DNA from: an uncultured Collinsella sp.
Lineage (GTDB): Bacteria > Actinomycetota > Coriobacteriia > Coriobacteriales > Coriobacteriaceae
Length of the DNA stretch: 64,000 bases
Direction: 5' to 3'
NCBI GenBank assembly: GCA_900542905.1
Contig: UQPF01000005.1
Coordinates: forward strand, 62,129 to 126,128
The notes under the pieces were generated by a model, which ran no database searches, was not told the DNA's origin, and was given only the letters and a program-made list of their open reading frames with translations. The position numbers were made by a program, and so were the translations under genes. Shown one piece after another: positions 17,049 to 34,759 of this stretch (position 1 is the first letter of the stretch; each line of letters starts with the position of its first letter).

Positions 17049-17812
17049 AGGAGCATACCCCCCGCCACCAGCATGGCAAGCATCGCGAGCTCGGCCCATT
17101 GCAGAAACCATCCGGCCAAATCCCCCGTCACCCCGCCGAAGCGGGACAGGGCAACATGGTGGTACCACGCGAGCGCCAAAAGCCCCGCCACCGCCATAAG
17201 GGCGCCGACGGCCTGAGCGCACGCGACCATCCCTGCAGCCGAAGCCGCAGCGAAAGCGCAGAGCGGCACGACGATCGCCGCGCGCTTCTTCGAAGGCGAG
17301 AGCCCCGCGGCCATGCCGTCCGCCCGCGCGGCAGGCCAGCATTCTACGGCGAGCCCCGAAAGCGCGCGGGAGAACACGAGCGAGCACAGAAGCGCGAGGA
17401 ACGCCCCCGCCGTAAGCGGCAGCGCGGTGAACAGGGAAAACTGCAGAATAAGGTACACAACAACACCAATGACCCCGAAGGCGCCCGCCCGCGGGTCGTG
17501 CATGATCTCGAGCTTTCGCTCGCGTGGGGCCCAACTTGCAAGCGCATCGGAGGTGTCGCAGAGCCCGTCTAGGTGGATGCCTCCCGTCACCGCCACAGGC
17601 AGCGCCACGAGCACGGCCGCGACGATGGTCGCGGGCACGCCGAACAGGTTCGCCATGTACCCCCACGCCGTCATGAGGAAGCCTTCCGCAAGGCCCACCA
17701 GGGGAAACGCGGCAAGCGCATGGGTTGACCCGAAATCGGTCCAGGCCGATTTCGGGACGGGGATGCGCGAGAACGTTCCGAACGCCGCGCCGATTGCCTC
17801 TGCTATCTTCAC
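17045..17812 (-). CDS. cobS: Adenosylcobinamide-GDP ribazoletransferase (cobalamin synthase)
   Basis: The GTG at 17812 overlaps the cobU stop (GTGA). FGTFSRIPVP... and a multi-TM profile are typical of CobS. Confidence 0.88.
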   Translation of the reverse strand: MKIAEAIGAAFGTFSRIPVPKSAWTDFGSTHALAAFPLVGLAEGFLMTAWGYMANLFGVPATIVAAVLVALPVAVTGGIHLDGLCDTSDALASWAPRERKLEIMHDPRAGAFGVIGVVVYLILQFSLFTALPLTAGAFLALLCSLVFSRALSGLAVECWPAARADGMAAGLSPSKKRAAIVVPLCAFAAASAAGMVACAQAVGALMAVAGLLALAWYHHVALSRFGGVTGDLAGWFLQWAELAMLAMLVAGGMLL

Positions 17813-18357
17813 CTTGTAGGTCCTTCGCCTTTCATCCACACGGGAATCCCGCATACCACTTCGACTGCGCGGTCGGCCAGCGCCGCCACGCCCGCGTTCA
17901 CGCGCGCGAGCGCGCGCCTCCATACCTCGGTCCCCTCATCGTAGCGCATCCCATCGGCGAACACGTCGACGGTGACAACCACCGTATACGCAGCGGCCTG
18001 AGCGAGCCGTTCAATGCCTCCGAGCACCTCGCGCGCCACTGCGTCGGGGTCACGTGGGGACAAGCCGCCTTCCGCGAAAAGCTCGTTTGCAACCAGGTTG
18101 CCCACGTCCTCCAAAAGAAGCGTGCAGCCGCGCGGAAGCCCGGGCACTGCGGCGCCCACGTCACGCGTGCGCTCGAGGGTGGAAAACCCCTTGCCCTCGC
18201 GCAGCGCCCGATGGCGCGCGATGCGGCGGGCGCCCTCTTCCCCGAAGGGCCCCATCGTTGCCAGGTACACGCGAGGGCAGTCGTGCCCGAGGCACAGGGA
18301 CTCGGCGTAGGCGCTCTTGCCGCTCGCGGCGGCGCCGATGACGAGCGTCACCGTCAT
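17809..18357 (-). CDS. cobU: Adenosylcobinamide kinase / adenosylcobinamide-phosphate guanylyltransferase
   Basis: MTVTLVIGAAASGKSAYAE...RIARHRALR...LLEDVGNLVANE; 182 aa. ATGA overlap with the cobT stop. Confidence 0.9.
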   Translation of the reverse strand: MTVTLVIGAAASGKSAYAESLCLGHDCPRVYLATMGPFGEEGARRIARHRALREGKGFSTLERTRDVGAAVPGLPRGCTLLLEDVGNLVANELFAEGGLSPRDPDAVAREVLGGIERLAQAAAYTVVVTVDVFADGMRYDEGTEVWRRALARVNAGVAALADRAVEVVCGIPVWMKGEGPTR

Positions 18358-19496
18358 TTCCCGGCCTCGAAATGCTCGTAAGCAGCCATGCCAGTCGCCG
18401 TGAACGTCTTCCCATCCCGGTACACGCGCAGCGCCGAATCCAGAAGGGGCAGATACGCCATGGCGCCCGCGCCCTCGCCCAAGTGCATGCCTGCGTCGAG
18501 GGGTGCCTTTATGCCGAGCTCGCGAAGGAGCTCCTGGCTTGCGGGTTCGCTTGATGCGTGGGTGCCCACGAGGTAGCCCAAGGCGTTGGGGCACAGGCGC
18601 GCCGCGCACAAGGCCGCCGTGCAGGATATGACCCCGTCGAGGAGCGCCGGCGCCTTCGAGGCCGCGGCCCCCAGGTAGAAGCCGCACATCGCCGCGATGT
18701 CGAAGCCGCCCACCTTCGAGAGCACGTCGATCGGGTCGGCAGGATCGGGCGAGTTCGCGTCGATAGCGCGCTCGACCACGTCGCGCTTACGCGCGAGCGA
18801 GGCGTCCGAGAGCCCCGCGCCGCGCCCGACGAGGCTCCGCGCGTCCGCCCGGATGAGCACTGCGGCCACCGCCGCCGAGGTGGTCGTGTTGCCGATGCCC
18901 ATCTCGCCCGCGGCGAGAAGGCGCACGCCGGCGCGGACAAGCCCGCACGCGACGGCGATTCCGACATCGATCGCGCGCACGGCCTCATCGCGAGACATAG
19001 CGGAGCCGTGCGCGATGTTGCCGCTCCCCCGCCGTACGTTCGCGCGCACCATGCGCGCGTCTTCTATGCCCCGGGCCATACCCACGTCGACGGGCACGAC
19101 CTCGGCACACGCGAACGCCGCCATACGGCAGGCGCTCGTGGCCCCCTCGCACATGTTGCGCGCGACGGCTCGCGTCACGTCTTGCCCGCTTTGCGACACG
19201 CCTTCGGCAACGACCCCGTTGTCGGAGAAGAATACCGCGAGCGCACGGGGAAACTCGGCCACCTCGGAGCTCCCCTGAGCTGCGGCGATACACGCGACGG
19301 CGTCTTCAAAGTCGCCCAATCCCCCCAAGGGGTGCGCGATGGAGTCCCACGCGGCGTACGCGGCGGCGCGGGCGCACTCGTCTGCGGGCGTGATCCGGGA
19401 GAGCGCGGCTTCGAGCACGGCGCCCGGCGCCGACGAGAACGTGCGCTCAACTTCCTCGCGGATGCAGGCAAGCGCGGTTTCGGTTGCTTCAGCCAT
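18354..19496 (-). CDS. cobT: Nicotinate-nucleotide--dimethylbenzimidazole phosphoribosyltransferase
   Basis: GEMGIGNTTTSAA and HLGEGAGA motifs. The ATG at 19496 overlaps the cbiA stop by 8 nt. Confidence 0.92.
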   Translation of the reverse strand: MAEATETALACIREEVERTFSSAPGAVLEAALSRITPADECARAAAYAAWDSIAHPLGGLGDFEDAVACIAAAQGSSEVAEFPRALAVFFSDNGVVAEGVSQSGQDVTRAVARNMCEGATSACRMAAFACAEVVPVDVGMARGIEDARMVRANVRRGSGNIAHGSAMSRDEAVRAIDVGIAVACGLVRAGVRLLAAGEMGIGNTTTSAAVAAVLIRADARSLVGRGAGLSDASLARKRDVVERAIDANSPDPADPIDVLSKVGGFDIAAMCGFYLGAAASKAPALLDGVISCTAALCAARLCPNALGYLVGTHASSEPASQELLRELGIKAPLDAGMHLGEGAGAMAYLPLLDSALRVYRDGKTFTATGMAAYEHFEAGK

Positions 19497-20871
19497 GCCG
19501 TCTCCTCTCTGCGAACGACGCTGCGGCAGACGCGAACGCGCGCGCAACGTCGGGGTTCGCAGGATAGTACACATGCGGGAAGCCCGCAACCAGGGACGGG
19601 GTTGTCGTCATGCACGGCCAGCCCTTGTCGCGCCGGGGCTTCTGCGCCCAGAAGTCGCCGCCCGGGCAGGTGGACTGCCAGTAGTGGAACTCGTGCGCGC
19701 GGATGCGTGTGCCGCACGGCCCGTAGAGCCCGTCGCGTTGGGAAGTGAGCTCCACGTACCCGAAATGGGACAGCCTTCCCCCGTTCTCGCTTGCGCCCTC
19801 AAGGGCGCCCGCAACAGGCCAGCGCCGCCCCTCGCTATCGGAGATTTCGCGCTGCAGGTACAGAAACCCACCACATTCGGCGACCGTCGGCATGCCGGAT
19901 TCCACCGCGCGCCGCACCGCCTCGCGCATCGGTGCGTTCTCGGAGAGCTGCCGTACATGGAGCTCCGGGTAGCCGCCCCCCAGATAGAGGGCGCTTGTCC
20001 CCCGGGGCAACTCGCTATCACACAGGGGGCTGAAAAAGGCCAGCTCGCAACCCAGGTCCTCGAGCGCGCGCAGGTTCTCCTCGTAGTAGAACGAGAACGC
20101 CTCGTCACGCGCGACGGCGACGATGGGCCGCGCTCCCGCGATCGGCTCCAACCGGTAAGGTTCCTCGCGGATATCGGGTGCCGTCGCCGCTATTTCGAGC
20201 AAGCGGTCAATGTCGACGCTCTTTTCCACCAGCTCGGCCATCTTGTCGATGCGCGCGGAGAGCTGCTCGACCTCGTCGGCGGTCACAAGCCCCAGATGCC
20301 GGCTTTCGAGCGAGAACGCCTCGTCGGCGGGAATATTACCCAAAACCGCGACGCCCGTGTGCTTCTCGATCGCAGGCGCCGCGTAGGCGCAGGCAGCGGC
20401 GCTCGTCTTGTTCAGCACGACGCCGCGCACGTTCGCACAAGGCAGGAACTCGGCGATGCCGCGAATTACGGCGGCGAGCGATAAAGACGCCCCGCGCCCG
20501 TTCACCACTAAAACGACCGGCGTTTCCGTGTCGCGCGCAACCTGGTAGCTGCTCGCGTCGGCCACGCCGGGCGCCATGCCGTCGTAGAAGCCCATGACCC
20601 CCTCGAGCACCGCGACATCCGCGCCCGCGGCGCCGCGTGCGAGCAGGGCGCGCAGCGTCCGGGCGTCGGTGAAGAAGCCGTCTAAGTTGCCCGAGCGCGC
20701 GCCCACGACGCGGCGATGAAAGAGCGGGTCAATGTAGTCGGGGCCGCATTTGAAGGCCGCGCATGCGAGGCCGCGGCGCGCAAGCGCGCGCAGGAGCGCG
20801 CACGTAACGACCGTCTTGCCGCTCCCGCTCGAGGGCGCAGCGACCATGAAACGCGGGATGGTCGTGCTCAC
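19489..20871 (-). CDS. cbiA: Cobyrinate a,c-diamide synthase
   Basis: (V)STTIPRFMVAAPSSGSGKTVVTCALLRAL... with a C-terminal GATase domain (ECGGFLYL). The GTG at 20871 overlaps the cbiET stop. Confidence 0.9.
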   Translation of the reverse strand: MSTTIPRFMVAAPSSGSGKTVVTCALLRALARRGLACAAFKCGPDYIDPLFHRRVVGARSGNLDGFFTDARTLRALLARGAAGADVAVLEGVMGFYDGMAPGVADASSYQVARDTETPVVLVVNGRGASLSLAAVIRGIAEFLPCANVRGVVLNKTSAAACAYAAPAIEKHTGVAVLGNIPADEAFSLESRHLGLVTADEVEQLSARIDKMAELVEKSVDIDRLLEIAATAPDIREEPYRLEPIAGARPIVAVARDEAFSFYYEENLRALEDLGCELAFFSPLCDSELPRGTSALYLGGGYPELHVRQLSENAPMREAVRRAVESGMPTVAECGGFLYLQREISDSEGRRWPVAGALEGASENGGRLSHFGYVELTSQRDGLYGPCGTRIRAHEFHYWQSTCPGGDFWAQKPRRDKGWPCMTTTPSLVAGFPHVYYPANPDVARAFASAAASFAERRRHG

Positions 20872-22217
20872 CGGGCGCCGCCTTCCCCACCCGCACCACG
20901 CGCGCTGACGAGGAACACGGGGTTTTGCGCCTTCATAAGATGGTGCGAGCCTACAGCCTCGGCGCGGGCGGCCGACACCTGGCACGCCTCGAACCCCTTA
21001 AAGCGCGAACCCGAGAGAAGCGCGCACGCCTCGGTGAGCGTCTCAACGGTGACGCATGGCACGCACAGGCGAACCTGCGAGTTCTTCTCGAGCGCCGCCT
21101 CCACGATAGAGGGAAGCTCGCCCGCGCTCCCGCCGACGAACACGGCGTCGGGGACGGGCAGTTTCGCGAGCGCTTCGGGGGCGACACCGGGGACCGCATG
21201 CACGTTGCCGCACCCGAATGCATCCGCGTTCTCTCGGATGAGCCGCACGCCGGCCGCGTTGCGCTCGACCGCCCATACCGACCCCGCTCGCGCGACGAGC
21301 GCCGCCTCAATCGACACGCTCCCCGTGCCGGCTCCGACGTCCCACACGGTGTCGGTCGCGGTAAGGCGCAGCTTCGCGAGCGCGACGGCGCGCACCTCCT
21401 GCTTGGTCATGGGAACGTCGCCGCGGATGAAGAGCTCGTCGGGAATGCCCGAGGAAGCGTACGGCCAGCGGGAGCTCGCGGCGCGGGATGCGCCCGCAGG
21501 GTCCGCCGCGGAAGAAGCCGCCGCGGGCGATGACGCGCCGGCCGGCGCCTCGGAGGCTGCGCTAGAGCCCGCAGGCGACCCGGCGCCGCCTGCGAACTCG
21601 ATAAGCATCACGTTCAAGTCGTCAAACGTCTGACCTGCGATTTCACTTGCGGTCGCGCAGGTGATGCGCTCGTCAGGGTACGACAGGCGCTCGGCCACCG
21701 TCACGCGCGCGTCCCCGAAGCCCGCTTGCGCAAGCTCGCACGAAAGCCGCGAGGGGTCTTCCCCGCCCGACGTGACGAGGAAGAGCTCACCTGCGCGCTC
21801 GGCCTCGGCCACGATGTCGCACGCCACGCCGTGAGCGCTCGCAAAGCGCCAATCCTGCCATGGACGCGCGAGGCGCGCGGCGAGATACGACGCTGAGCTT
21901 ATGCCGGGAATGACGCGCACGTCCACCTGCGCGTTGCCGGAGAGCGCCTCCACCAGGCGGCGCGCGCCGCTGAACAGCCCCACATCGCCCGTCATCACGA
22001 CCACGGCGCGCTGCCACGACGCCGCATCGGTGAGCGCGGCGGCGATGTCCGCCGTCTTCACGAGCTCGCATCTCACCACGTCGGGCGGCACGTCGATGCC
22101 GGCAAGCGCGCGATGAGCGCCGATGACCACGTCGGCGATGTCGATCGCGTCGAGCGCCGCGCGCGAGAGCAAGTCGGGGTTTCCGGGCCCCGCCCCGATG
22201 ATCGTTACCTTTCGCAT
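20868..22217 (-). CDS. cbiET: Cobalt-precorrin-6B/7 C5,C15-methyltransferase (decarboxylating), CbiE-CbiT fusion
   Basis: MRKVTIIGAGPGNPDLLS (CbiE) and VWDVGAGTGSVSIEAA (CbiT SAM motif). The halves are joined by an Ala/Ser/Pro-rich linker. Confidence 0.9.
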   Translation of the reverse strand: MRKVTIIGAGPGNPDLLSRAALDAIDIADVVIGAHRALAGIDVPPDVVRCELVKTADIAAALTDAASWQRAVVVMTGDVGLFSGARRLVEALSGNAQVDVRVIPGISSASYLAARLARPWQDWRFASAHGVACDIVAEAERAGELFLVTSGGEDPSRLSCELAQAGFGDARVTVAERLSYPDERITCATASEIAGQTFDDLNVMLIEFAGGAGSPAGSSAASEAPAGASSPAAASSAADPAGASRAASSRWPYASSGIPDELFIRGDVPMTKQEVRAVALAKLRLTATDTVWDVGAGTGSVSIEAALVARAGSVWAVERNAAGVRLIRENADAFGCGNVHAVPGVAPEALAKLPVPDAVFVGGSAGELPSIVEAALEKNSQVRLCVPCVTVETLTEACALLSGSRFKGFEACQVSAARAEAVGSHHLMKAQNPVFLVSARGAGGEGGAR

Positions 22218-22951
22218 GAAATCTCCCGATACCCGCGCGGCGTGACCATACGGCCGCCTACGAGCCTCGTGTCCGCGTTGCCGACGAACACGGTGGTGAA
22301 CATGTCGGCGTCGATCTCCCCCAGCTCGGAGAGCCTGCACATGCCCGACTGCTGCCCCTCGCGCCCGATGTTGCGTACCCAGCCGCAGAGCGTGTCGGGG
22401 GCCTTCCATTCGAGCATAATCTTCGCCGCGCGTGAGAGCCTGTCGGCGCGCTTTCTGCTGCGCGGGTTGTACAAACAGATGCAGAAGTCGGCGCTCGCCA
22501 CGGCGGCGAGCCTGCGCTCGATGACCTCCCATGGCGTGAGCAGGTCGGAGAGCGACACGACCGCGAAGTCGTGGGCAAGCGGGGCGCCGAGCACCGCCGA
22601 CCCGCTCTGAGCCGCGGTGGCCCCGGCGATAACTTCCACGTCTACATCGGGGTAGTCCTCCGCAAGCTCCAGCACAGGGCTCGCCATGCCGTACACGCCC
22701 GCGTCACCGCTGCACACGAGCGCCACGGCTTCTCCGCTCTGCGCGCGCGAAAGCGCCAGGCGGCACCGTTCGACCTCGTGCATCATCGGCGTCGCGAGAT
22801 GCGCCGCGTCAGGCACGGCGGCGAGCGCGAGCTCCACGTATTTCGTGTACCCCACAACGATGTCGGCCGCCTCCAGCGCGCGCCGAGCCGCAATCGTCAT
22901 GCCGTCGGGGCCGCCCGGGCCGATCCCCACCACGAAGAGCTTTCCCATCAC
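22205..22951 (-). CDS. cbiH: Cobalt-factor III / precorrin-3B C17-methyltransferase
   Basis: MMGKLFVVGIGPGGPDGMT...VCSGDAGVYGMA...; 248 aa. Confidence 0.92.
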   Translation of the reverse strand: MMGKLFVVGIGPGGPDGMTIAARRALEAADIVVGYTKYVELALAAVPDAAHLATPMMHEVERCRLALSRAQSGEAVALVCSGDAGVYGMASPVLELAEDYPDVDVEVIAGATAAQSGSAVLGAPLAHDFAVVSLSDLLTPWEVIERRLAAVASADFCICLYNPRSRKRADRLSRAAKIMLEWKAPDTLCGWVRNIGREGQQSGMCRLSELGEIDADMFTTVFVGNADTRLVGGRMVTPRGYREISCER

Positions 22952-24081
22952 CGCTCCTTAAACGAAAGTTCGATAGTTACCCTGGAAAACGCGACGGTCA
23001 CGCCGCCGTGAGCAAGCTTCGGGAAGATCAGTTTACCCCCGTCCGCGAGCGCCGCGCGCTCGCACACGTTGTCGACCCCCACCGTCGCGCGCACGAAATC
23101 AGATGGCGAAACGCTGCCTTCGACCTGCGACAACTCCTCTGCGGAATACGTCGTAAGCGGGATATTGCGCGCGCGGCAGAAGGCGAGCAGACCCTTCTCG
23201 TGCGCCTTCACGTCGATCGTCGCCGCCTCGCGCACGGCCGAAGGCGAGATGCCCGCCTGCCCGCACGCGAGAAGAAACGCCTCCCCGATCGCTTCGGCGC
23301 ACGCACCGCGACGGCACCCTATGCCCGCAACGATGCAGGGCACGACAAGGCGAAGCGGCTCGGGCGCAGGCGCCTGCGCCCGCACGCACGCTGGCTTCCC
23401 AGTTTCACCGTCGGGCACGACCTCGCCCGTTGTCTCCGCCGCGCGAACGAACGCACCTGCATTCGCGCCAGCGAACGGTGACACGACGATATCGGCCCGA
23501 GCGCGGTCGGACGCAATGTCAACCCCCTCAGGCGGCTGTCCCGAAATCGGCATGTCGGAATAGAGCGCCACGCGCCCGCCCGAAAGCAGCCTCGCCGACA
23601 CTCGCTTGATAGCCTCGGGATTCGAAACGGCGAGCCCCTCACAGCGCGCCCACGTATCCACCGCCCACACGCCGCGGACGTCGGTCGCCGTTGTGATGAC
23701 GGGGATGGCCCCTGCCGCGCGTGCCACAGTTTGCGCAAGCTCGTTCGCACCGCCCAAATGCCCCGACAAAAGCGGGACGGCAAAGCGCCCCGCCTCGTCG
23801 ATCACCACAACCGCGGGATCTTTTGCCTTCGAGGCGACATGCGGCGCGATCGCCCGCACGGCGATGCCCGCCGCGCCGACGAACAGAAGCGCGTCCGACG
23901 CTTCCCACGCGAGCGCCGTCCATGCGCGCAGGTCGGCCTTCCCCTCGCCGAACCCGCGCGAAACGGAAACGTTCCAGCCAGGGTCATCTTCACCTGTCTG
24001 CGCGCAATCGGAAAGCGCGCGTGCGGTGCGCTCCGCCAACGCATACCCCCTCTCAGTGAACGCTATGCAGGAAATCCTCAT
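22948..24081 (-). CDS. cbiG: Cobalt-precorrin-5A hydrolase
   Basis: 377 aa with CbiG N- and C-terminal domain character (VVGIGCRRG...). ATGA overlap with cbiH. Confidence 0.85.
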   Translation of the reverse strand: MRISCIAFTERGYALAERTARALSDCAQTGEDDPGWNVSVSRGFGEGKADLRAWTALAWEASDALLFVGAAGIAVRAIAPHVASKAKDPAVVVIDEAGRFAVPLLSGHLGGANELAQTVARAAGAIPVITTATDVRGVWAVDTWARCEGLAVSNPEAIKRVSARLLSGGRVALYSDMPISGQPPEGVDIASDRARADIVVSPFAGANAGAFVRAAETTGEVVPDGETGKPACVRAQAPAPEPLRLVVPCIVAGIGCRRGACAEAIGEAFLLACGQAGISPSAVREAATIDVKAHEKGLLAFCRARNIPLTTYSAEELSQVEGSVSPSDFVRATVGVDNVCERAALADGGKLIFPKLAHGGVTVAFSRVTIELSFKER

Positions 24082-24315
24082 CTAGCGCACTACCATCGTC
24101 GAGAAGTAGCTGCCCCGATCGGGCACATCGTCGAGCGAGCGGTACACGCGCTCGCCCGGAAGACCACAGTCCTCTACGAGCTCGGCACCGTCGAAGGCGC
24201 CCTCCTCGCGAAGGATGCGCTTCGTGTCCGCAAGCGAGCGGCGCGCCTTCATGACCACCTTCGTCCCCGACCAGCCGATCACGCGGGGCACCCCGTACAG
24301 AACGCCTTTACTCAT
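24082..24315 (-). pseudogene. cbiL: Internally deleted remnant of cobalt-factor II / precorrin-2 C20-methyltransferase (77 codons)
   Basis: MSKGVLYGV resembles the CbiL N-terminus (MxGKLYGVGxGPGD). KVVMKARRSLADTKRILREEG...CGLPGERVYRSLDDVPDRGSYFSTMVVR resembles the last ~65 residues of CbiL. Only 234 nt lie between cbiD and cbiG, so about 150 residues of the methyltransferase core are absent. Confidence 0.7.
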
Positions 24316-25492
24316 ACGTCGCCCCCAATTCCCCGATAACTGCATCGGCGCCCGACGTGCGGAAAAGCTCGCGGCGCTCGGCGTCGAACACGACCGCGGC
24401 GATGTCGCATGCGCCCGCCGCGCGGCGGCGCAACCTGTCCTCGATTGCCGCAGCGAGCGAGGCGCGCGCAGCGTCCCCCACGCCGGCGGCCTCGATTACC
24501 TCGAGCGCCACCGTGGTCGTGACGGACGTCATGATCTCGCGCACGGTCTTCGCGCCCGCGCCGGCCATGGCCGCGTGGGCGGCCAGAATCTCCGCGCGGC
24601 AGTCGGCGGTACGCGAATGGGTGTCCATGATGCCGCCCGCGACCTTCACCAGCTTGCCGATGTGTCCCACAAGAAGGACATTGGTGAATCCCTCGCGAAC
24701 GCAGCAATCAATCGCATCGCCTACAAAGTTGGAGATAAAGACCACCGGCGCACCGTTTAGGTGGAAATGCCCCGAGATGAACTGCGCGCCGTAGTTGCCG
24801 GGCGTGAGCACGACTCCGCGCCGCCCCATAGCCGCATGCTGCCGAATCTCGAGCACGATGCTGTCGCGCAAGGCAGCGAGGCTGCGCGGCTCGACGATGC
24901 CCGTCGTGCCCAGGATGGAGATGCCGTCCTTTATCCCCAGGTGCGGGTTGAAGGTCTTTTCGGCAAGGGCAACGCCCTCGGGTACAGAAATCGTCACAGC
25001 AATATTTCCAGAAAAGACGTGCGCGGCGCACACCTCGCGAACCGCCGAAGTGATCATCGCGCGCGGCGTCGCGTTGATGGCGGCCGCCCCCACCGGCTGC
25101 TCGAGCCCGGGCAACGTCACGCGCCCCACGCCCACGCCGCCATCGACGGAAACTTCCGATTCGCGCGCGGGCACGCCCTTGCTGCCCGCAGCACCCGTGC
25201 CCGACCCCGCATGTTCCACGCGCGCGTACACGAGCACGCCGTCGGTCACATCGGCATCGTCGCCTGCGTCCTTTCGCACGGCGCACTGGGCGCACCCCTC
25301 GCCGATGCATGCGTCGACCACGTTCGCTTCGACGGGCAGCCCGCCGGGGGTGACGATCGACACGAGGCCGACGGGCTTTCGTGACAAGAGCATCTCGCAG
25401 GCCGCCTTCGCCGCGAGCGCGGCGCAGCTCCCCGTGGTGTAGCCGCAGCGCAGGCGGGTCGTCCCGGTATATATGTAGTGCTCGAAGGCCAC
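24308..25492 (-). CDS. cbiD: Cobalt-precorrin-5B C1-methyltransferase
   Basis: GTG at 25492, 1 nt after the cbiF stop. ...LRCGYTTGSCAALAAKAA... is a typical CbiD N-terminus. Confidence 0.9.
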   Translation of the reverse strand: MAFEHYIYTGTTRLRCGYTTGSCAALAAKAACEMLLSRKPVGLVSIVTPGGLPVEANVVDACIGEGCAQCAVRKDAGDDADVTDGVLVYARVEHAGSGTGAAGSKGVPARESEVSVDGGVGVGRVTLPGLEQPVGAAAINATPRAMITSAVREVCAAHVFSGNIAVTISVPEGVALAEKTFNPHLGIKDGISILGTTGIVEPRSLAALRDSIVLEIRQHAAMGRRGVVLTPGNYGAQFISGHFHLNGAPVVFISNFVGDAIDCCVREGFTNVLLVGHIGKLVKVAGGIMDTHSRTADCRAEILAAHAAMAGAGAKTVREIMTSVTTTVALEVIEAAGVGDAARASLAAAIEDRLRRRAAGACDIAAVVFDAERRELFRTSGADAVIGELGATYE

Positions 25493-25493
25493 G

Positions 25494-26285
25494 CTAGCTG
25501 CTCGCCTTCCGATACCCCGTGGCAAAAGAAGGGTCGTAAAGCTTGCTGCGCTCGTACGACTCCGCTTGCGCGCCGTTGTGCGCAAGCCCGCCGCGAGCTC
25601 CGAGCACGCGGCCCACCACCACGAGCGCCGTGCGGTCGATGCCCTCTCGCGCGCCCGCATCGGCGAGCGTGCCCACTGTGCATCGCACCACGCGCTCCTC
25701 AGGCCAGGTCGCCTTGTACACGAGCGCCGCCGGCTCGTCGGAACTGCGGCCCGCGGCCAAAAGCTCGGCGGAAAGCTCGGCGAGCATACCCGAGCTCAGG
25801 AAGATGACCATGGTCGAGCCGCTTTCCGCCATGGTGCGCATGCCCTCGCCCGCGGGCATGGGGGTGCGTCCGGAAAGCCGCGTGATCACGACCGACTGGC
25901 TGATTCCCGGCAGCGTGTATTCCTGGCGAAGTGCCGCCGCGGCACCGCAAAAGCTCGACACGCCGGGCACCACCTCGTAGTCCACGCCGTGCGCGTCGAG
26001 CGCGTCCATCTGCTCCTGGATGGCGCCGTACAGGCACGGGTCGCCCGTGTGCAGGCGCACCACTTCCTCGCCCCGCGCGTCTGCCGCGCACATCACGTCG
26101 AGCACTTCCTCCAAGGTCATGTGCGCGCTGTCGTAGACGATGCAGGATTCCTTGCACTCAGCGAGCAGCTCGGGGTTCACAAGGCTTCCCGCCCAAACGA
26201 CCACGTCGGCTGCGCGCAGAAGGCGCGCCCCGCGCAGCGTGATAAGGTCGGTGGCGCCCGAGCCTGCGCCAACGATATGAATCAT
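25494..26285 (-). CDS. cbiF: Cobalt-precorrin-4 C11-methyltransferase
   Basis: MIHIVGAGSGATDLITLRGARLL...LHTGDPCLYGA...; the ATG at 26285 is preceded by GGGAAGGGAAGG. This is the first gene of the minus-strand operon. Confidence 0.92.
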   Translation of the reverse strand: MIHIVGAGSGATDLITLRGARLLRAADVVVWAGSLVNPELLAECKESCIVYDSAHMTLEEVLDVMCAADARGEEVVRLHTGDPCLYGAIQEQMDALDAHGVDYEVVPGVSSFCGAAAALRQEYTLPGISQSVVITRLSGRTPMPAGEGMRTMAESGSTMVIFLSSGMLAELSAELLAAGRSSDEPAALVYKATWPEERVVRCTVGTLADAGAREGIDRTALVVVGRVLGARGGLAHNGAQAESYERSKLYDPSFATGYRKASS

Positions 26286-26416
26286 CCGAGCCTTCCCTTC
26301 CCGTTTCTCATCGCAACCGTTTACGCCGCCATTCGCGCAGCGGGCAAAACACGGCGCCTGCGGCGGCAATCGGCGCAAATACGCAGGCAGGAGGCGCAAT
26401 GCAGCCCGCCCTGGCT

Positions 26417-26445
26417 TTGACACGTTCACAAGTGCCCACTATCAT
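26417..26445 (+). promoter_or_regulatory. Sigma70-type promoter TTGACA-17 nt-TATCAT for the riboswitch/cbiK operon
   Basis: -35 at 26417-26422 and -10 at 26440-26445, read directly. About 50 nt upstream of the riboswitch core. Confidence 0.6.
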
Positions 26446-26496
26446 AGTAAAAGTTTCGGCAACGAGCATATGACAATCGGATAAAAGGAAATGACC

Positions 26497-26700
26497 GGCG
26501 CGGCGCCCGCACAGCCCGCGCTGGCTTGCGGAGGGAACCAGGTGGGAATCCTGGGCAAGGGACATTACTGTATAGGACGCGCGGGCGAACCGCCTCGCGC
26601 CCCAAGCCAGACTGCTTCGCCTTTTCCTCACGGCATCGCCGTGGCGTTAGCTCCTTGTGAACCCCGAGGGGTGCGCTTTTCTTTCGCTTGTGCCGACAAG
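26497..26700 (+). promoter_or_regulatory. Cobalamin (B12) riboswitch
   Basis: Conserved core AGGGAACCAGGTGGGAATCCTGGGC...ACTGTA at 26532-26575. B12-box-like AAGCCAGACTGC at 26604-26615. The enclosing helix is CTGGCTT (26521-27) / AAGCCAG (26604-10). CCTTTTCCTC (26620-29) is complementary to the cbiK SD. Confidence 0.75.
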
Positions 26701-26743
26701 CAACTGTCGCCGGGGGACCGGCAAACCGAGGAAAGGAAAAACC

Positions 26744-27670
26744 ATGTCCGACCAGATGTCACGCCGCGGCTTCATGGGCGCCGCAGCAACCGGAGCCGTC
26801 GCGCTCGCCGGAGTCGCGCTCGCGGGCTGCTCCAACACCTCCGCGAGTTCCGAGAAATCGAGTGAAAAGGAGAAGGCCGTGAAGCCGGTCATCCTCGTCA
26901 CGAGCTTCGGCACGAGCTACAACGACTCGCGCCACATCACCATCGGCGCCATCGAAGACGCTATCCGCGAGAAGTACTGGCAGGACTACGACATCCGCCG
27001 CGCCTTCACCGCGCAGATCATCATCGACAAGCTGAAGAAGCGCGACGGCATCACGATCGACAACATGACCGAGGCGCTCGACCGCTGCGTGGAAGACGGC
27101 GTGAAGGAAATCGTCGTGCAGCCGACGCATCTCATGGGTGGCCTGGAATACACCGACGTGAAAGACGAGCTCGACAAGTACGCCGACAAGTTCGACAAAA
27201 TCTCGCTCGGCGACCCGCTGCTCACCTCCGACGACGACTACAAGAAGGTGGCCGCAGCCATTAAGGAGAACATGGCGTCCTTCGACGACGGCAAGACGGC
27301 GCTGTGCCTCATGGGCCACGGCACCGAAGCCGATTCCAACGCCGACTATGCCAAGATGCAGGAAGTGTTCAAGAACGAGGGCTTGACGCAGTTCTTCGTC
27401 GGCACCGTCGAGGCTGAACCGACCTGCGAGGATGTTATCGCCGCCGCGAGCGCCGCAGGCTACAAGAAGGCCGTGCTCGCGCCGTTCATGGTGGTCGCGG
27501 GCGACCACGCGAACAACGACATGGCAGACGAGACCGACCCCGACAGCTGGGCTGCGAAGTTCGTGGCCGCCGGCTTCGAAGTGACGTGCCTGCTCCAGGG
27601 TCTGGGACAGAACGTCGCGGTCGACGACATCTACGTCTCGCACGTGGACGACGCCATCGCCAAGCTGTAA
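26744..27670 (+). CDS. cbiK: Sirohydrochlorin cobaltochelatase homologue with Tat signal and lipobox (predicted extracytoplasmic lipoprotein)
   Basis: MSDQMSRRGFMGAAATGAVALAGVALAGC (SRRxF twin-arginine motif + LAGC lipobox). The mature part aligns to CbiK: ILVTSFGTSY, LMGHG, GTVEAEP, VAGDHANNDMA. SD GAGGAAAGGA lies upstream. Confidence 0.85.
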   Translation: MSDQMSRRGFMGAAATGAVALAGVALAGCSNTSASSEKSSEKEKAVKPVILVTSFGTSYNDSRHITIGAIEDAIREKYWQDYDIRRAFTAQIIIDKLKKRDGITIDNMTEALDRCVEDGVKEIVVQPTHLMGGLEYTDVKDELDKYADKFDKISLGDPLLTSDDDYKKVAAAIKENMASFDDGKTALCLMGHGTEADSNADYAKMQEVFKNEGLTQFFVGTVEAEPTCEDVIAAASAAGYKKAVLAPFMVVAGDHANNDMADETDPDSWAAKFVAAGFEVTCLLQGLGQNVAVDDIYVSHVDDAIAKL

Positions 27671-27814
27671 ACTCGCCGCGCACGGGGGCGCCGGTCGCGT
27701 CCCCGTGCAACGGGCATGCGCCTTCCCCGACTGACGGCGCATGCCCGTTGCATTCGCATCCCGCCCGCCCACCGCACGGCGCGGGCGGTCGAAGCGATTG
27801 AAAGGAACCCCTCC

Positions 27815-28348
27815 ATGTTGAAGAAAACCCTCGCCTTCGCCCTGTCGGCGGCGCTTTTCGCGTTCTCGCTCGCCGGCTGCGGCGGAAATTCAATCGACAG
27901 CGCAAAGGCAAGCGATGCCGATTCCCAGGAAAAGACCGAACAGGTGGCCGATGCGCCCGAGGGCGCAAGCGCTGCCCCCATCACCGCCGACAAGGTGGCC
28001 GACGGCACCTATCCGATCACCGTAGATTCCAGCTCGAGCATGTTCAGGATTGTGGACGCCCAGCTCATCGTGGAAAACGGCTCCATGCACTGCGTGATGA
28101 CACTTTCCGGCACGGGCTACGGCAAGCTCTTCATGGGCACGGGCGACGAGGCTGCCGCCGCGAGCGAGGCCGACTTCATCCCCTATGCGGAAAACGCGGA
28201 AGGCAAGTACACCTACGACGTGCCCGTCGAAGCGCTCGACGAGGACACCGCCTGTGCCGCGTGGAGTATTAGAAAAGAGCGGTGGTACGACCGCACGCTC
28301 GTATTCGAATCCGCCGGCGTCGATCTGCGCGCCGACGCGCTGAAGTAA
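27815..28348 (+). CDS. Small lipoprotein of unassigned family (177 aa)
   Basis: MLKKTLAFALSAALFAFSLAGC lipobox signal with SD AAAGGA upstream. The mature domain is paralogous to the N-terminal domain of the next ORF. Confidence 0.75.
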   Translation: MLKKTLAFALSAALFAFSLAGCGGNSIDSAKASDADSQEKTEQVADAPEGASAAPITADKVADGTYPITVDSSSSMFRIVDAQLIVENGSMHCVMTLSGTGYGKLFMGTGDEAAAASEADFIPYAENAEGKYTYDVPVEALDEDTACAAWSIRKERWYDRTLVFESAGVDLRADALK

Positions 28349-28352
28349 CGCC

Positions 28353-29924
28353 ATGCGGTCGATTCTTCCCAAGGGGGAAAGCAGGAAGCGTCGCAGCATC
28401 GCGGTGCGCGTGATCGCCTGCATTCTCGTCGCCCTGCTCGCGCTTCCTTTCGCGGGGTGCAGTGCGAGCCCGAACGCGACCGGTGGCACGGCAGGCTCTC
28501 AGGAATACACTGTGAGCGTCTCGCTTTCCGGCGGGTCAGGGCGCGCAAGCATCGCCTCACCCACCGCAATTGTGAAGGATGGCGACACCTACACCGCGAC
28601 CATCACCTGGTCGAGTTCGAACTACGACAAGATGACCGTCGACGGCGTGGACTACGCGCCCGTAAACGACGGCAGCAACTCCACGTTCGAGATACCCGTC
28701 ACGCTCGACGAGGACATGGCCGTGTCGGCCGAGACCGTCGCCATGTCGACGCCGCACACCATCGACTACACGATCCACTTCGACTCATCCACCATGAAGG
28801 AGAAATCGGGCGACGATGCAAGCGGCGGCTCCCCTGCGGGAACGGCTTCAAGCGCCGCGGCCGACTTCCACAACGCAGATTTGGGCTGCGGCTGGGAGCC
28901 GACGGGGACGCTTCAGCTAGAATACGCCAAGCACTTCACTATCGACGAGTACGAAGGCGGCCTGCGGCTTATCTGCATTTCGAACGGGGAGCGCTTCCTC
29001 GTGGTGCCGCAAGATGCGAAGGTACCTGATGGGTTGAGCTCCGACATCGCGGTCATAAGGCGCCCCACCGACAAGGTGTACCTCGTGTCGTCGGCGACGA
29101 TGTGCCTGGTCGACGCGCTCGATGCGAACGACAATATCATCATGTCGGGCACGAAGGCCGACGATTGCTCGGTCGCGGGCTTCAAAAGCGCACTCGAAAG
29201 TGGGGAGATCGCCTACGGCGGCAAGTACAGCGCGCCCGACTACGAGCGAATATCGGCCTCGGGCTGCACGCTCGCCATCGAGAACACCATGATCAACCAC
29301 ACACCCGATGTGAAGGAAAAGCTGCAGAAACTCGGGCTCGTCGTGCTCACCGAACAGTCGTCGAGCGAGCCCGAAGCACTCGGGCGCGTCGAGTGGATTA
29401 AGCTTTTCGGCGTCCTGTTCGACAAGGAAGACGAGGCCGCGCACCTGTTCAACGAGCAGAAGGCCCGCGTCGAGCAAACGTCGGGGCTCGCGTCGTCAGG
29501 TAAAACCGTGGCGTATTTCTACATTAACTCGAACGGGGCCGCCGTCACGCGGCGGGCGGGCGACTACGTGGCGCAGATAATCGAGCTTGCAGGCGGCAGC
29601 TACGCGCTCGATGACGCGCAGACGGCGTCGACGTCAGGTTCGTCAGTAACGCTCGAAATGGAGCGCTTCTACGCGACGGCGAAGGATGCCGACATCATCG
29701 TCTACAACGGCACCATCGACGAATCGGTTGCCACCTTGAACGACTTCGTAGGCAAAAACGCGCTATTGTCGCAGTTCAAAGCCGTGAAGAACGGCAACGT
29801 CTGGGTCACAAGCGCCGACATGTACCAGCAGATGACTTCTACCGCCGACATTATCGACGAACTGCACGGGGCGTTCACCGGCGATGACGCGAGCGACTTC
29901 CATTATCTGAGGAAGCTCGGCTAG
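28353..29924 (+). CDS. Lipoprotein: unassigned N-terminal domain + cluster-A/type-II ABC substrate-binding domain (FecB/BtuF-like, Peripla_BP_2)
   Basis: Lipobox LPFAGC. The extra domain is aa ~50-146. From aa ~185 there is Peripla_BP_2-like sequence (KVYLVSSATMCLVDALDA..., EWIKLFGVLFDKEDEA). Confidence 0.8.
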   Translation: MRSILPKGESRKRRSIAVRVIACILVALLALPFAGCSASPNATGGTAGSQEYTVSVSLSGGSGRASIASPTAIVKDGDTYTATITWSSSNYDKMTVDGVDYAPVNDGSNSTFEIPVTLDEDMAVSAETVAMSTPHTIDYTIHFDSSTMKEKSGDDASGGSPAGTASSAAADFHNADLGCGWEPTGTLQLEYAKHFTIDEYEGGLRLICISNGERFLVVPQDAKVPDGLSSDIAVIRRPTDKVYLVSSATMCLVDALDANDNIIMSGTKADDCSVAGFKSALESGEIAYGGKYSAPDYERISASGCTLAIENTMINHTPDVKEKLQKLGLVVLTEQSSSEPEALGRVEWIKLFGVLFDKEDEAAHLFNEQKARVEQTSGLASSGKTVAYFYINSNGAAVTRRAGDYVAQIIELAGGSYALDDAQTASTSGSSVTLEMERFYATAKDADIIVYNGTIDESVATLNDFVGKNALLSQFKAVKNGNVWVTSADMYQQMTSTADIIDELHGAFTGDDASDFHYLRKLG

Positions 29925-29928
29925 CACC

Positions 29929-30969
29929 ATGAAAAGCCGACTTTCCATGACATACGACGAATCGGGGCGCGCCGCGCGGTGTCGCGTCGTGACGGCGCTG
30001 CTCGCTGTTGCCCTCATCGTGCTCGTCGGGGCCAACCTGTGCATCGGGAGCGTGCTCGTGCCAGCAGACCACATCCCCGGCATCCTTTCGGGCGGCGCGG
30101 CCAATTCCATGGAAAGCCAGGTCATCTGGGAGATTCGCCTGCCGCGCGTGCTTTCAGCCGTGCTTCTCGGCGGGGCGCTTTCCCTCTCCGGGTTCCTGCT
30201 GCAGACGTTTTTCAACAACCCCATCGCCGACCCGTTCATCTTGGGCGTCTCCTCGGGTGCAAAGTTCGTCGTAGCGCTTACGATGATTGTACTTCTGGGC
30301 GCGAACCAGGCCATGTCCTCCCCGGCCATGGTGGCCGCAGCGTTTCTGGGCTCGCTTATCACCATCGGCTTCGTGCTCCTCATCGCACGGCGCATAAGTT
30401 CCATGGCCATACTCATCGTGGCGGGCGTCATGGTGGGATACATCTGCTCGGCGGCGACGAACTTCCTCATCGCCTTCGCCGACGACCAGTCCATCGTGAA
30501 CCTGCACAACTGGTCTTTGGGTAGCTTCTCGGGTTCGAGCTGGGACGACATCGCGGTCATCGCGGTCGTGGTGATCACCGTGAGCGCATGCGTATTCGCG
30601 ATATCGAAGCCCCTTTCCGCCTTCCAGCTGGGAGAAGCCTACGCGAAAAGCGTCGGCGTGAACGTCGCACGCTTCCGCGTGGTGCTCGTCCTTCTAGCGA
30701 GCATGCTCTCCGCCTGCGTGACCGCGTTCGCTGGTCCGGTGTCGTTCGTAGGCATCGCGGTTCCGCATCTCGTTAAGTCGGCGCTGAAGTCGTCGAAGCC
30801 TATCCGCGTGATTCCTGCGTGCTTCTTGGGAGGCGCCATCTTTTGCGCGGGCTGCGATTTGATCGCGCGCACGCTGTTCTCCCCCGTCGAGCTTTCCATC
30901 AGCGCCGTCACCGCCATCTTCGGCGCGCCGGTGGTTATTGCACTCATGTTGAAGAAGCGGGTGAGGTAG
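29929..30969 (+). CDS. ABC importer permease, FecCD/BtuC family
   Basis: 346 aa with ~10 TM segments and family motifs (IRLPRVL, GGALSLSG, PIADPFILGVSSGA, FVGIAVPHL). Confidence 0.92.
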   Translation: MKSRLSMTYDESGRAARCRVVTALLAVALIVLVGANLCIGSVLVPADHIPGILSGGAANSMESQVIWEIRLPRVLSAVLLGGALSLSGFLLQTFFNNPIADPFILGVSSGAKFVVALTMIVLLGANQAMSSPAMVAAAFLGSLITIGFVLLIARRISSMAILIVAGVMVGYICSAATNFLIAFADDQSIVNLHNWSLGSFSGSSWDDIAVIAVVVITVSACVFAISKPLSAFQLGEAYAKSVGVNVARFRVVLVLLASMLSACVTAFAGPVSFVGIAVPHLVKSALKSSKPIRVIPACFLGGAIFCAGCDLIARTLFSPVELSISAVTAIFGAPVVIALMLKKRVR

Positions 30970-32286
30970 ATGGGGGAATTCGTGCCGCGGACCAAAACGC
31001 TCGGAGGGAACATTCCATGCTTGGCCAGTTCTGAGCTCGCACGAAAGCGCCAGAAGGCACTTTCGGCTCGTGCGGAACTGCGCGCGGAACGCCTCCTTCG
31101 AGCGGAGTCGAACCTCGAAACCCCGGTAAAAACGCAGGCTGACGGAGCGCCGCTTTTCCGCATAAGCGACCTGTCGGCGGGCTACGACAAGAAGGTCGTA
31201 GTCGAAGGCGTCGATCTGGAGGTTCGCGCGGGCGACGTCGTGGCACTCATCGGGCCGAACGGCTCGGGCAAGTCGACCATCTTGAAAACCATCACACGCC
31301 ATCTGGCACCGCTTGCCGGCGCGGTCGAGCTCGACGGGCGGGAGATTTCCCGATGGAAGACGGCGGAGTTCGCAAGGAACCTTGCCGTTATGCTGACAGA
31401 TCGCCCCCGAACCGAGCTCCTCACCTGCCGCGATATCGTAGAGGCGGGAAGGCATCCCTACACCGGGCGAATGGGCGCACTCACGCCCGACGACCATAAT
31501 CGGGTCGACGAGGCCATGAAAACCGCACATGTGGAAAAGCTTGCCGAGCGCGACTTCATGCAGATAAGCGACGGGCAACGCCAGCGCGTCATGCTCGCAC
31601 GCGCCATCGCGCAGGATCCGCGCGTGCTCGTGCTCGACGAGCCCACGTCGTATCTCGATATCCGCTACCAGATCGACCTGCTGCGAATACTTCGCCACCT
31701 TGCGAAATCGCGGAATGTTGCTGTCATCATGTCCATCCACGAACTCGAGCTCGCGCAGAAAAGCGCCGACAAGGTGATTTGCGTGAAGGACGGCCGGGTC
31801 TTCCGCGCCGGCGCACCCGAGGACATATTCACGCGCGAGACGATTGGCGAGCTCTACGGCCTGCAACATGGCACCTTCAACGAGCGCTTCGGCAGCGTGG
31901 AAATTGGGCGCCCGCACGGCGATGCGCACACGTTCGTCATCGCCGGCGCAGGTACGGGGTCGGCTGTGTTTCGCCAGCTCATCCGGCAGGGCAAGGCGTT
32001 CTACGCGGGCGTTCTGCACGAAGGGGACATCGACTGCGAGCTCGCGCGCGACCTGGCGACGGAATGCGTGGCCGAGCGCGCCTTCGAGCCGATCGGGGAT
32101 AAAACCATAGCCCGCGCCAAAGAGCTCCTCGTCCACTGCACGCGCCTTATCGTGTGCCCCGCCGCCTTCGGCACCATAAACGCCCGCAACGCAGAGCTCG
32201 TCGAGTTCGCACGCTCGCATGGTATCGAGGTCATGCGAGCGTGCGAAGGCGCATCGGAGGATTCCCAATTGGAGTGGGAAGGATAA
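30970..32286 (+). CDS. ABC importer ATP-binding protein (FepC/BtuD-like) with an extra ~130-aa C-terminal domain
   Basis: Walker A GPNGSGKST, signature ISDGQRQRV, Walker B LVLDEPTSYLD, H-loop SIHEL. The ~60-aa N-terminal extension is uncertain (an alternative GTG lies at 31126). Residues ~308-438 lie beyond the normal ABC cassette. Confidence 0.85.
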   Translation: MGEFVPRTKTLGGNIPCLASSELARKRQKALSARAELRAERLLRAESNLETPVKTQADGAPLFRISDLSAGYDKKVVVEGVDLEVRAGDVVALIGPNGSGKSTILKTITRHLAPLAGAVELDGREISRWKTAEFARNLAVMLTDRPRTELLTCRDIVEAGRHPYTGRMGALTPDDHNRVDEAMKTAHVEKLAERDFMQISDGQRQRVMLARAIAQDPRVLVLDEPTSYLDIRYQIDLLRILRHLAKSRNVAVIMSIHELELAQKSADKVICVKDGRVFRAGAPEDIFTRETIGELYGLQHGTFNERFGSVEIGRPHGDAHTFVIAGAGTGSAVFRQLIRQGKAFYAGVLHEGDIDCELARDLATECVAERAFEPIGDKTIARAKELLVHCTRLIVCPAAFGTINARNAELVEFARSHGIEVMRACEGASEDSQLEWEG

Positions 32287-34583: not shown

Positions 34584-34660
34584 TGGTAGCCCGTACCAGA
34601 TTCGAACTGGTGATCTCCGCCTTGAGAGGGCGGCGTCCTAAACCGCTAGACGAACGGGCC
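34584..34660 (-). tRNA. tRNA-Glu (anticodon CUC), CCA encoded
   Basis: Hand-folded cloverleaf of GGCCCGTTCGTCTAGCGGTTTAGGACGCCGCCCTCTCAAGGCGGAGATCACCAGTTCGAATCTGGTACGGGCTACCA. The anticodon stem is CCGCC/GGCGG, the loop is CT-CTC-AA, and the T-loop is TTCGAAT. Confidence 0.9.
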
Positions 34661-34682: not shown

Positions 34683-34759
34683 TGGTAGCCCGTACCAGAT
34701 TCGAACTGGTGATCTCCGCCTTGAGAGGGCGGCGTCCTAAACCGCTAGACGAACGGGCC
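34683..34759 (-). tRNA. tRNA-Glu (anticodon CUC), second identical copy
   Basis: 77/77 nt identical to 34584-34660, separated from it by a 22-nt spacer. Confidence 0.9.

Follow-up and report, generated by a model that had tools for sequence, protein, structure and literature searches.

A 64,000-nt stretch of contig UQPF01000005.1 (GenBank assembly GCA_900542905.1, positions 62,129 to 126,128 of the forward strand) from an uncultured Collinsella sp., hereafter the window, contains an operon that encodes a CbiK-like lipoprotein, a small lipoprotein, a substrate-binding lipoprotein, and the permease and ATPase of a type II ATP-binding cassette (ABC) importer (Table 1). The strong promoter and the five genes described in a first-pass annotation of this DNA were all recovered at or near the positions proposed there. 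The five genes are co-directional downstream of the promoter and are separated by gaps of 0–4 nt, except for 144 nt behind the first gene, which encodes the CbiK-like protein. The promoter was near-invariant across 36 distinct Collinsella leaders (among the matches listed). Inside the operon no internal promoter was found, and terminator-like sites were no more frequent than in shuffled sequences. As had also been described, the operon runs divergently from a 16-kb B12 operon, the genes of which (CbiF, D, G, H, E/T, A, CobT, U, S, phosphatase, CbiB, CobD, CbiP, CbiC, and CbiJ) start near 26285 and occupy the minus strand at about 10440–26285.

Table 1. Features of the operon and its leader in the window (aa, amino acids).
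Feature	Position	Strand	Evidence or remarks
Sigma-70-type promoter, TTGACA-17 nt-TATCAT	26417..26445	+	11/12 consensus matches; 0.0 expected in shuffles
Compact cobalamin-riboswitch-like aptamer (predicted)	26481..26633	+	Conserved core, B12-box-like motif, covariation
Putative expression platform: terminator-like hairpin, then GCGCUUUUCUUUCG	26643..26686	+	-19.6 kcal/mol, U-rich tail
CbiK-like lipoprotein, 308 aa	26744..27670	+	Pfam CbiK, 8e-79
Small lipoprotein, 177 aa, lipobox LAGC	27815..28348	+	No Pfam family
Predicted NEAT-fold domain A	About aa 56-170 of the small lipoprotein (27815..28348)	+	AlphaFold/Foldseek
Substrate-binding lipoprotein, 523 aa, lipobox FAGC	28353..29924	+	Pfam Peripla_BP_2, 7e-31
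Predicted NEAT-fold domain B	About aa 48-146 of the binding protein, 28494-28790	+	AlphaFold/Foldseek
FecCD-family type II ABC importer permease, 346 aa	29929..30969	+	Pfam FecCD, 6e-81
ABC ATPase with additional C-terminal domain	30970..32286	+	Pfam ABC_tran, 5e-31

The CbiK-like protein matched the Pfam family CbiK (PF06180) with 265.1 bits, against a gathering score of 26.2 bits, and is publicly annotated as sirohydrochlorin cobaltochelatase; the NCBIfam biosynthetic equivalog NF047852 was not reached (225.4 vs. 400 bits). Its N-terminus MSDQMSRRGFMGAAATGAVALAGVALAGC (SRRGFMGAAA...LAGC) combines an RR motif with the lipobox LAGC, in line with the twin-arginine translocation (Tat) signal and lipobox first ascribed to it, and the signal model TIGR01409 was borderline (16.2 vs. 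16.7 bits). Judged from these motifs, the protein does not have the cytoplasmic location expected of a biosynthetic CbiK. Its matches in the PDB were CbiK of Salmonella enterica (1qgo, 4e-44), FetB of Porphyromonas gingivalis (9b86, 1.6e-37), and the periplasmic CbiK of Desulfovibrio vulgaris (2xvx, 1e-32). Residues H192, E223, and H255 aligned to His145, Glu175, and His207 of S. enterica CbiK, which we take to be the metal-site residues, and all three were invariant in 55/55 distinct module-associated homologues; the metal site of the chelatase is thus predicted to be intact. Export signals were conserved among the homologues as well, the Bacillota proteins combining Sec lipoprotein signals with long acidic linkers and those of Actinomycetota carrying RR-type signals. 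Together with the lipobox on each of the three proteins, this conservation of the CbiK-like signal peptides across loci bore out the proposal that all three extracytoplasmic components are lipid-anchored. In many Bacillota homologues (L097, L104, L113, L120, L135, and many others) a conserved acidic motif, roughly DEENYDTGDASLDNPRNQDEIGE, was seen just before the CbiK domain, and L131 and L138 encode tandem CbiK-CbiK fusions.

The small lipoprotein consists of a lipobox signal peptide, a low-complexity linker, and a domain that we term A, while in the binding protein about 200 additional residues, comprising domain B and a linker, lie ahead of the Peripla_BP_2 domain (aa 245–488). These two domains had been described as paralogous copies of an unassigned domain. 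Pairwise BLASTP between them was weak (E = 0.004), and comparison of their profiles with hhalign gave a probability of 98.5% and E = 1.6e-15 over 124 columns, which confirmed the paralogy. The profiles were built from single-domain members only; two-domain proteins present in both profiles give a trivial match. The second part of the description was superseded, because AlphaFold and Foldseek assigned both copies to the NEAT fold, which is the heme-relay fold of Gram-positive Isd systems. AlphaFold returned confident beta-sandwiches with a predicted local distance difference test (pLDDT) score of 93.5 for domain A and 86.9 for domain B. For domain A, the top Foldseek matches in the PDB were all NEAT domains (Hbp2 N2, IsdA, and Shp; E about 1e-3, template-modelling (TM) scores of 0.5–0.6), with E = 9.6e-4 and TM 0.58 against 4myp. 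Domain B matched IsdX1 best (3sik; E = 4.3e-5, TM 0.70, root-mean-square deviation 2.7 Å), followed by IsdA, IsdX2 N5, and IsdH N3. On these structural models, A and B are divergent NEAT-fold domains. At the level of sequence, the Pfam NEAT threshold (PF05031, 32.8 bits) was not reached in the window (13.9 bits for domain A, no match for domain B), the best homologues scored 29.0 and 32.2 bits, and a profile of domain B searched against PDB sequences gave only a weak partial match to IsdX1 (E = 0.85).

Domain B contains the motif P-H-x-I-D-Y, in which H and Y are nearly invariant, and domain A a nearly invariant Cys and the motif K-E-x-W-Y-D-R. These conserved residues differ from those of heme-binding NEAT domains: aligned by eye with IsdA, domain B seems to have HxxxY, and domain A KxxxY, at the place of the heme-ligating YxxxY of the last strand (Y166/Y170 of IsdA), a placement that is to be taken as our assumption. 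The domain A family comprised 1,291 representatives at 50% identity. Bacillota have A and B joined within a single lipoprotein of about 290 aa. Free-standing versions of domain B (about 130–170 aa) exist as well, and the Collinsella copy forms part of the binding protein. Such occurrence of domain B, free, fused to A, or fused to the binding protein, is the pattern expected of interacting partners. Giant proteins with up to nine tandem domain A-type copies and hardly any other recognisable domain were also observed (P0241, 1965 aa; P0242; P0249; P0267, 2538 aa; P0244), and one of these giants ends in a partial Peripla_BP_2 domain.

Pfam identified the complete set of a type II importer (Peripla_BP_2 binding protein, FecCD permease, ABC ATPase), and the domain composition of the first-pass annotation, including the extra N-terminal domain of the binding protein and the extra C-terminal domain of the ATPase, held. 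The closest solved relative of the binding domain in a profile search was Lmo2184 (5joq, 3e-7), with IsdE matched weakly, and as a single sequence the domain matched the vitamin B12-binding protein 5ysc weakly (1.6e-3). Public annotation lists the permease as belonging to an iron ABC transporter; its best NCBIfam model was the vitamin B12 permease BtuC (7e-62, 209 bits vs. a cutoff of 334). For the ATPase, the best NCBIfam model was NF007082, an archaeal corrinoid ABC transporter ATPase (3.6e-74, aa 61–399, 250 vs. 537 bits). The additional C-terminal domain of the ATPase (about aa 324–400; about 130 extra residues) on its own matched positions 272–349 of this model (E = 3e-8), and ATPase homologues carried a precomputed match to PF27219 (MJ0874); a sequence search of this domain against the PDB gave no match. 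No NCBIfam score reached the equivalog level for BtuC, BtuD, or BtuF, and the binding protein did not match the BtuF model. The open reading frame of the ATPase (438 aa) is about 40–60 codons longer at its 5′ end than those of its homologues (372–398 aa), and its true start probably lies 40–60 codons downstream of the ATG at 30970 (window 30970–31150).

The leader upstream of the CbiK-like gene had been proposed to contain a cobalamin riboswitch. As a standard RF00174 element the claim failed: no match was obtained with Rfam in gathering mode, and with permissive filters the score was still 16.0 bits (E = 0.08, 26490–26600), against a gathering score of 31.5 bits, with 79 model positions deleted. 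Gathering mode, which applies fast filters, was itself unreliable on these sequences, giving no match in the window or in loci L003 and L004; because an RF00174 match of 54.3 bits in L003 (6577–6762), obtained with permissive filters, was missed there, gathering-mode negatives were not relied on. What stood of the proposal was a conserved structured RNA with a cobalamin core and covariation. In the window, this aptamer is formed by P1 (AGGAAA/UUUCCU), a variable P2 hairpin (about 26495–26524), P3 (GCGGAG/CUUCGC), the core GGGAACCAGGUGGGAAUCCUGGGCAAGGGACAUUACUGU, and the B12-box-like motif AAGCCAGACUGC, and a short variable hairpin occupies the place of the canonical P6 extension. The same leader element was found in the distant Coriobacteriia loci L165–L168, which carry the same operon and have the core GGGAACCAGGUG.GAAUCCUGGGCAAGGGACAUUACUGU and the shortened B12 box AAGCCAGA.UGC in common with the window. 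The cobalamin core was exact in the window, and its B12-box-like motif was present in shortened form.

Across the five leaders (window and L165–L168), 95.3% of positions in P1, P3, and P4 were paired, and six pairs were changed on both sides. A covariance model built from them, R1, recovered a single copy in the 64-kb window (26481–26633, 146.6 bits) and matched outside its training set in L126 and L128, in each case 5′ of a CbiK-like gene; no riboswitch was detected in the leader of the divergent cbi operon (26285–26480, minus strand) with either Rfam or R1. In the resulting seven leaders, 94.9% of cells in P1, P3, and P4 paired, compared to 34–58% with the partners slid, and ten pairs were changed on both sides, a number reached by 0/500 shuffles, where it should be considered that these are seven sequences only and that their alignment was fitted to the model. 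Pairs were counted for these three helices only because MAFFT misaligned the variable hairpins. The core and B12 box were invariant or nearly so in all seven, while P2 and the short hairpin varied in sequence and kept their hairpin form. Leaders within Collinsella were uninformative, as the 36 distinct ones among 75 loci listed differed nearly all by single substitutions. Minimum free energy folding of the whole GC-rich window leader, which allows many alternative pairings, gave no signal (z = −0.31), and an unconstrained fold returned the proposed architecture for the L167 leader only.

We conclude that 26481–26633 is a real, compact, conserved structured RNA of the cobalamin-riboswitch type that is missed by the Rfam threshold. 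With RF00174 and clan CL00101 it shares the core GGGAA...GGUG.GAAUCC...GC, the B12-box-like motif AGCCAGA.UGC, the multi-helix junction topology, and its place upstream of a B12-related operon; it differs in its score of 16 bits, in the short variable hairpin that replaces a 79-position stretch, and in the shortened B12 box. It looks like a shortened cobalamin riboswitch variant without the P6 extension, the nearest likeness presumably being the short class (class II), which also lacks this extension. On a bolder reading, which seems to us rather improbable, the Coriobacteriia leader would be a distinct compact cobalamin riboswitch class missed by current Rfam thresholds. For the downstream hairpin, we infer transcription attenuation. 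The hairpin has the loop UGAACCC, to which the GGG in the loop AAGGGACA of the aptamer is complementary, and the platform loop UGUGAACCCCG was kept in 5/5 Coriobacteriia leaders. In known cobalamin riboswitches a kissing loop stabilises regulation, and the contact between aptamer and platform is possibly one of these.

A survey of genomes gave at least 580 confirmed matches (Collinsella only among those listed), and a survey of metagenomes in which a Bacillota sequence was placed first as query gave at least 573. Within Collinsella the small lipoprotein was 97–99% identical across 80 genome loci (among the matches listed), and the exact CbiK-like protein occurred on at least 1,000 contigs. Public records carry the exact proteins under the name of C. 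aerofaciens, which places the window in this species or a very close relative of it. Through homologues of the small lipoprotein, the same gene set was found in Paratissierella segnis (Tissierellia; L003) and Paratractidigestivibacter (Atopobiaceae; L004), as well as in 80 diverse metagenome loci (again among the matches listed). The order CbiK, domain A, domain B, binding protein, FecCD, ATPase, and ATPase C-terminal domain was traced by tblastn with the window proteins, and this seven-part module recurred in essentially all of about 90 diverse Bacillota and Coriobacteriia loci long enough to show it.

Sensitive scans placed a canonical RF00174 element ahead of the CbiK-like gene, and on its strand, in 12/14 loci (55–108 bits), and likewise in L003 (54.3 bits) and L170 (84.5 bits); in L090 the upstream element, cut off at its 5′ end, scored 40.9 bits. 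In total, canonical RF00174 elements (41–108 bits) were present in 15/17 sensitively scanned non-variant loci with room for a leader. A motif census found core plus B12 box in 46/54 evaluable loci and was conservative, missing two Rfam-positive loci; its "short/canonical" labels were unreliable and were not used. As judged from these sequences, the module is riboswitch-controlled across the family, and the B12 control that had been proposed for the window operon was in this respect upheld. Genes for cobalamin biosynthesis (cbi/cob) lay within about 6 kb of the module in 20/84 diverse loci. In many Bacillota the module is directly followed by cbiD-x-cbiF-cbiG on the same strand and is there the 5′ part of a riboswitch-controlled cbi operon. 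Riboswitch-controlled copies that stand alone, with no cbi genes in view, were found in L003, L167, and L170 (for L170 only the upstream flank was visible). In Paratractidigestivibacter (L004, 12512–16531), a PocR-type sensor/regulator, microcompartment shell genes, and the large subunit of a B12-dependent diol dehydratase follow the module, which places the importer between B12 biosynthesis genes and a B12-consuming pathway.

We consider it somewhat on the probable side that the operon encodes a B12-repressed, Isd-like surface tetrapyrrole relay and importer, most likely for corrinoids; the most likely substrates would be complete cobamides and/or incomplete corrinoids such as cobinamide or cobyric acid. 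Several lines of evidence led to this reading. Canonical RF00174 elements lie upstream of orthologous operons in distant lineages, and the window leader has the cobalamin core and architecture and covaries. The module is conserved, both accessory domains have the NEAT fold, and all three binding components are extracytoplasmic. The permease is nearest to BtuC, and the ATPase, including its unusual C-terminal domain, is nearest to an archaeal corrinoid ATPase. Moreover, some riboswitch-controlled copies stand without cbi genes nearby. Finally, a functional analogue exists in Bacteroides thetaiotaomicron, where BtuJ/BtuH/BtuK/BtuG, BtuB, and BtuFCD form a riboswitch-controlled cobamide relay of multiple surface lipoproteins (PMC13616437). 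This relay is an analogue and not a homologue of the Collinsella module, since it is built from unrelated folds (beta-propeller, DUF4465, and others), requires an outer membrane, and lacks any CbiK-like or NEAT-like part.

In the proposed mechanism, the operon would be transcribed from its strong promoter until high intracellular cobalamin binds the compact aptamer (26481–26633); the ligand-bound aptamer would favour the terminator-like hairpin, possibly via the loop-loop contact, and switch the operon off. At low B12 the five proteins would be made, and the CbiK-like protein, domain A, and the binding protein with domain B would be lipid-anchored on the outer face of the membrane. The NEAT-like domains may capture a tetrapyrrole and hand it to the tethered Peripla_BP_2 protein, by analogy with the Isd heme relay, after which the binding protein would dock on the FecCD permease and the ATPase would power import. 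The CbiK-like protein could hold a cobalt-tetrapyrrole via its intact chelatase site or metallate the tetrapyrrole. Transport of corrinoids by the module is suggested by its riboswitch control, and what the RNA binds, what is transported, in which order it is handed on, and what the CbiK-like protein does are all proposals of this model. The cell-surface module for capture and import of tetrapyrroles, corrinoids, or metal that had been suggested fits everything that was testable, with its substrate and mechanism put forward here as likely rather than established.

A number of observations weigh against corrinoid uptake. The binding domain is closest to Isd-type heme-binding proteins (Lmo2184 and IsdE) and not to BtuF of Escherichia coli, every solved NEAT domain that we are aware of binds heme, and we know of none that binds a corrinoid. 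The window aptamer scores below the Rfam threshold, and its ligand is suggested by core homology and position. In L004 and L169, no riboswitch was found immediately upstream, and the module there directly follows cbiJ. An invariant chelatase site is not needed for simple import. Lastly, the module often lies in or next to de novo cbi operons, and no chelatase or cobalt transporter was found in the window outside it; both points fit a role in cobalt supply at least equally well.

Such a role is the strongest alternative, although we consider it unlikely on the whole: through extracytoplasmic chelation, the module would provide de novo B12 synthesis with cobalt or with a cobalt-tetrapyrrole. Co2+ would be put into a tetrapyrrole or corrin precursor by the exported CbiK-like protein, and the metallated product would reach the importer by way of the NEAT-like domains, with the module taking over the task of a dedicated cobalt transporter, of a cytoplasmic chelatase, or of both. 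The 55/55 invariance of H192/E223/H255 is in accordance with this. So is the genomic setting, in which the module lies divergent to the cbi operon (window), after cbiJ (L004 and L169), or directly before cbiD-cbiF-cbiG (L122, L127, L137, L145, and others); Salmonella-type cbi operons carry cbiK and cbiMNQO at such a place. Apart from the module, the 16-kb operon and the rest of the 64-kb window yielded no chelatase and no cobalt transporter. However, both may be encoded elsewhere in the genome; no recognisable cbiL or early-pathway gene (SUMT/hem) was present in the window either. Extracytoplasmic Co and Mn chelatase activity on porphyrin has been demonstrated for FetB, an exported CbiK homologue (PMC13065792), and delta-proteobacteria of the cbiK type are without known cobalt transporters, with one B12 element controlling cbiK-cbiL plus btuCDF in Desulfovibrio (Rodionov 2004, PMC545781). 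The Desulfovibrio precedent named in the first-pass annotation, an exported CbiK by an ABC transporter, thus has the riboswitch as part of it already. D. vulgaris CbiK(P) (2xvx) resembles the Collinsella protein as an exported CbiK paralogue with an intact chelatase site and an adjoining type II ABC importer; it differs in belonging to a Gram-negative system located in the periplasm, where no lipid anchor holds it on the surface of a monoderm, and in the lack of NEAT-like domains. Against cobalt supply, the model needs a hypothetical extracellular metal-free tetrapyrrole as acceptor, type II importers with Peripla_BP_2 proteins are not known as cobalt-supply routes, and riboswitch-controlled copies occur alone, with no cbi genes in view (L003, L167, and L170). 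The more specific proposition that the exported CbiK-like protein is a working extracytoplasmic cobaltochelatase, and that a route in which the metal is inserted outside and the product imported replaces cobalt transporter and cytoplasmic chelatase, seems to us rather improbable.

Much less likely still is an Isd-like uptake of heme or iron-porphyrin, in which the CbiK-like protein would act like IhtB/FetB and B12 would play a secondary part, for instance in the balancing of tetrapyrrole pools. The NEAT fold of A and B, the proximity of the binding protein to Lmo2184 and IsdE, the resemblance of the CbiK-like protein to heme-binding FetB and CbiK(P), and the public annotation of the permease as iron transporter speak for it. 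The Isd/Hbp/IsdX systems of Bacillota indeed combine tandem NEAT surface domains with a Peripla_BP_2 lipoprotein and a FecCD importer, like the Collinsella module, and Lmo2184 comes from the Listeria NEAT locus. In contrast to the Isd systems, the Collinsella module is under a predicted cobalamin riboswitch instead of iron control, its domains are lipoproteins or fusions and not sortase-anchored, it includes a CbiK-like protein and an association with cbi genes, and YxxxY seems not to be conserved, with HxxxY in B and KxxxY in A if the placement against IsdA assumed above is right. No gene for a sortase or an IsdG-like heme oxygenase was found in the operon or its flanks. Cobalamin riboswitch control is consistent over distant lineages and the module is embedded in cbi operons, the Pfam NEAT thresholds were not reached, and the archaeal corrinoid transporter model includes the C-terminal domain of the ATPase. 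FetB/IhtB (9b86) is, like the Collinsella protein, a CbiK homologue that is exported and anchored by lipid in a context of tetrapyrrole/iron uptake, but it is part of a Bacteroidota heme/iron system with a TonB-dependent receptor, for which we know of no B12 riboswitch or NEAT-like partners. A generic siderophore or metal-chelate importer with its neighbours and leader there by chance, as the generic FecCD, Peripla_BP_2, and ABC_tran matches and weak matches to the siderophore-binding proteins BauB and SstD could suggest, is already disfavoured and hardly credible, given that the gene order with CbiK and NEAT-like domains is kept over about 90 loci with riboswitches present, that the leader RNA covaries, and that no siderophore-specific model reached its cutoff.

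Two further features of the window were noted. The one sizeable intergenic gap of the operon contains two consecutive GC-rich hairpins without a U-tract, the first just past the stop codon of the cbiK-like gene (GCACGGGG...CCCCGTGC, 27680–27708) and the second at 27710–27748 (ACGGGCATGCGCC...GGCGCATGCCCGT); the two (27680–27748) might tune relative expression or RNA stability. Tandem identical tRNA-Glu(CTC) genes were located on the minus strand at 34584–34660 and 34683–34759 (62.3 bits each).

Cobalamin riboswitches, importers of the BtuFCD class, NEAT relays, and exported CbiK paralogues are each known already. In the searched literature, no NEAT-like domain was linked to B12, a 2014 survey of NEAT domains did not mention B12, and no Gram-positive surface system for cobamide capture was described, in agreement with the earlier remark that no characterised Gram-positive version was known. 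According to a review of September 2026, the extracellular capture of cobamides by Gram-positive bacteria "remains entirely uncharacterized" (PMC13616437). The operon is probably an undescribed Gram-positive means of capturing B12-type cofactors at the cell surface.

Gut communities are shaped by corrinoid competition, and surface capture machinery is known for Bacteroidota only. The module is of high practical interest because of its abundance in gut bacteria and because it can be tested directly. If the NEAT-like domains bind corrinoids, a supposedly heme-specific fold would gain a second class of cofactor, and the principle of the Isd relay would apply to vitamin B12 as well. If the proposal is true, the names "sirohydrochlorin cobaltochelatase," "hypothetical protein," and "iron ABC transporter" would have to be changed for many proteins, which would alter predictions of which bacteria make B12 and which take it up. 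Should metallation outside the cell prove true, one step of B12 supply would take place on the cell surface of Gram-positive gut bacteria. The module provides concrete candidates for manipulating the sharing of B12 in the gut.

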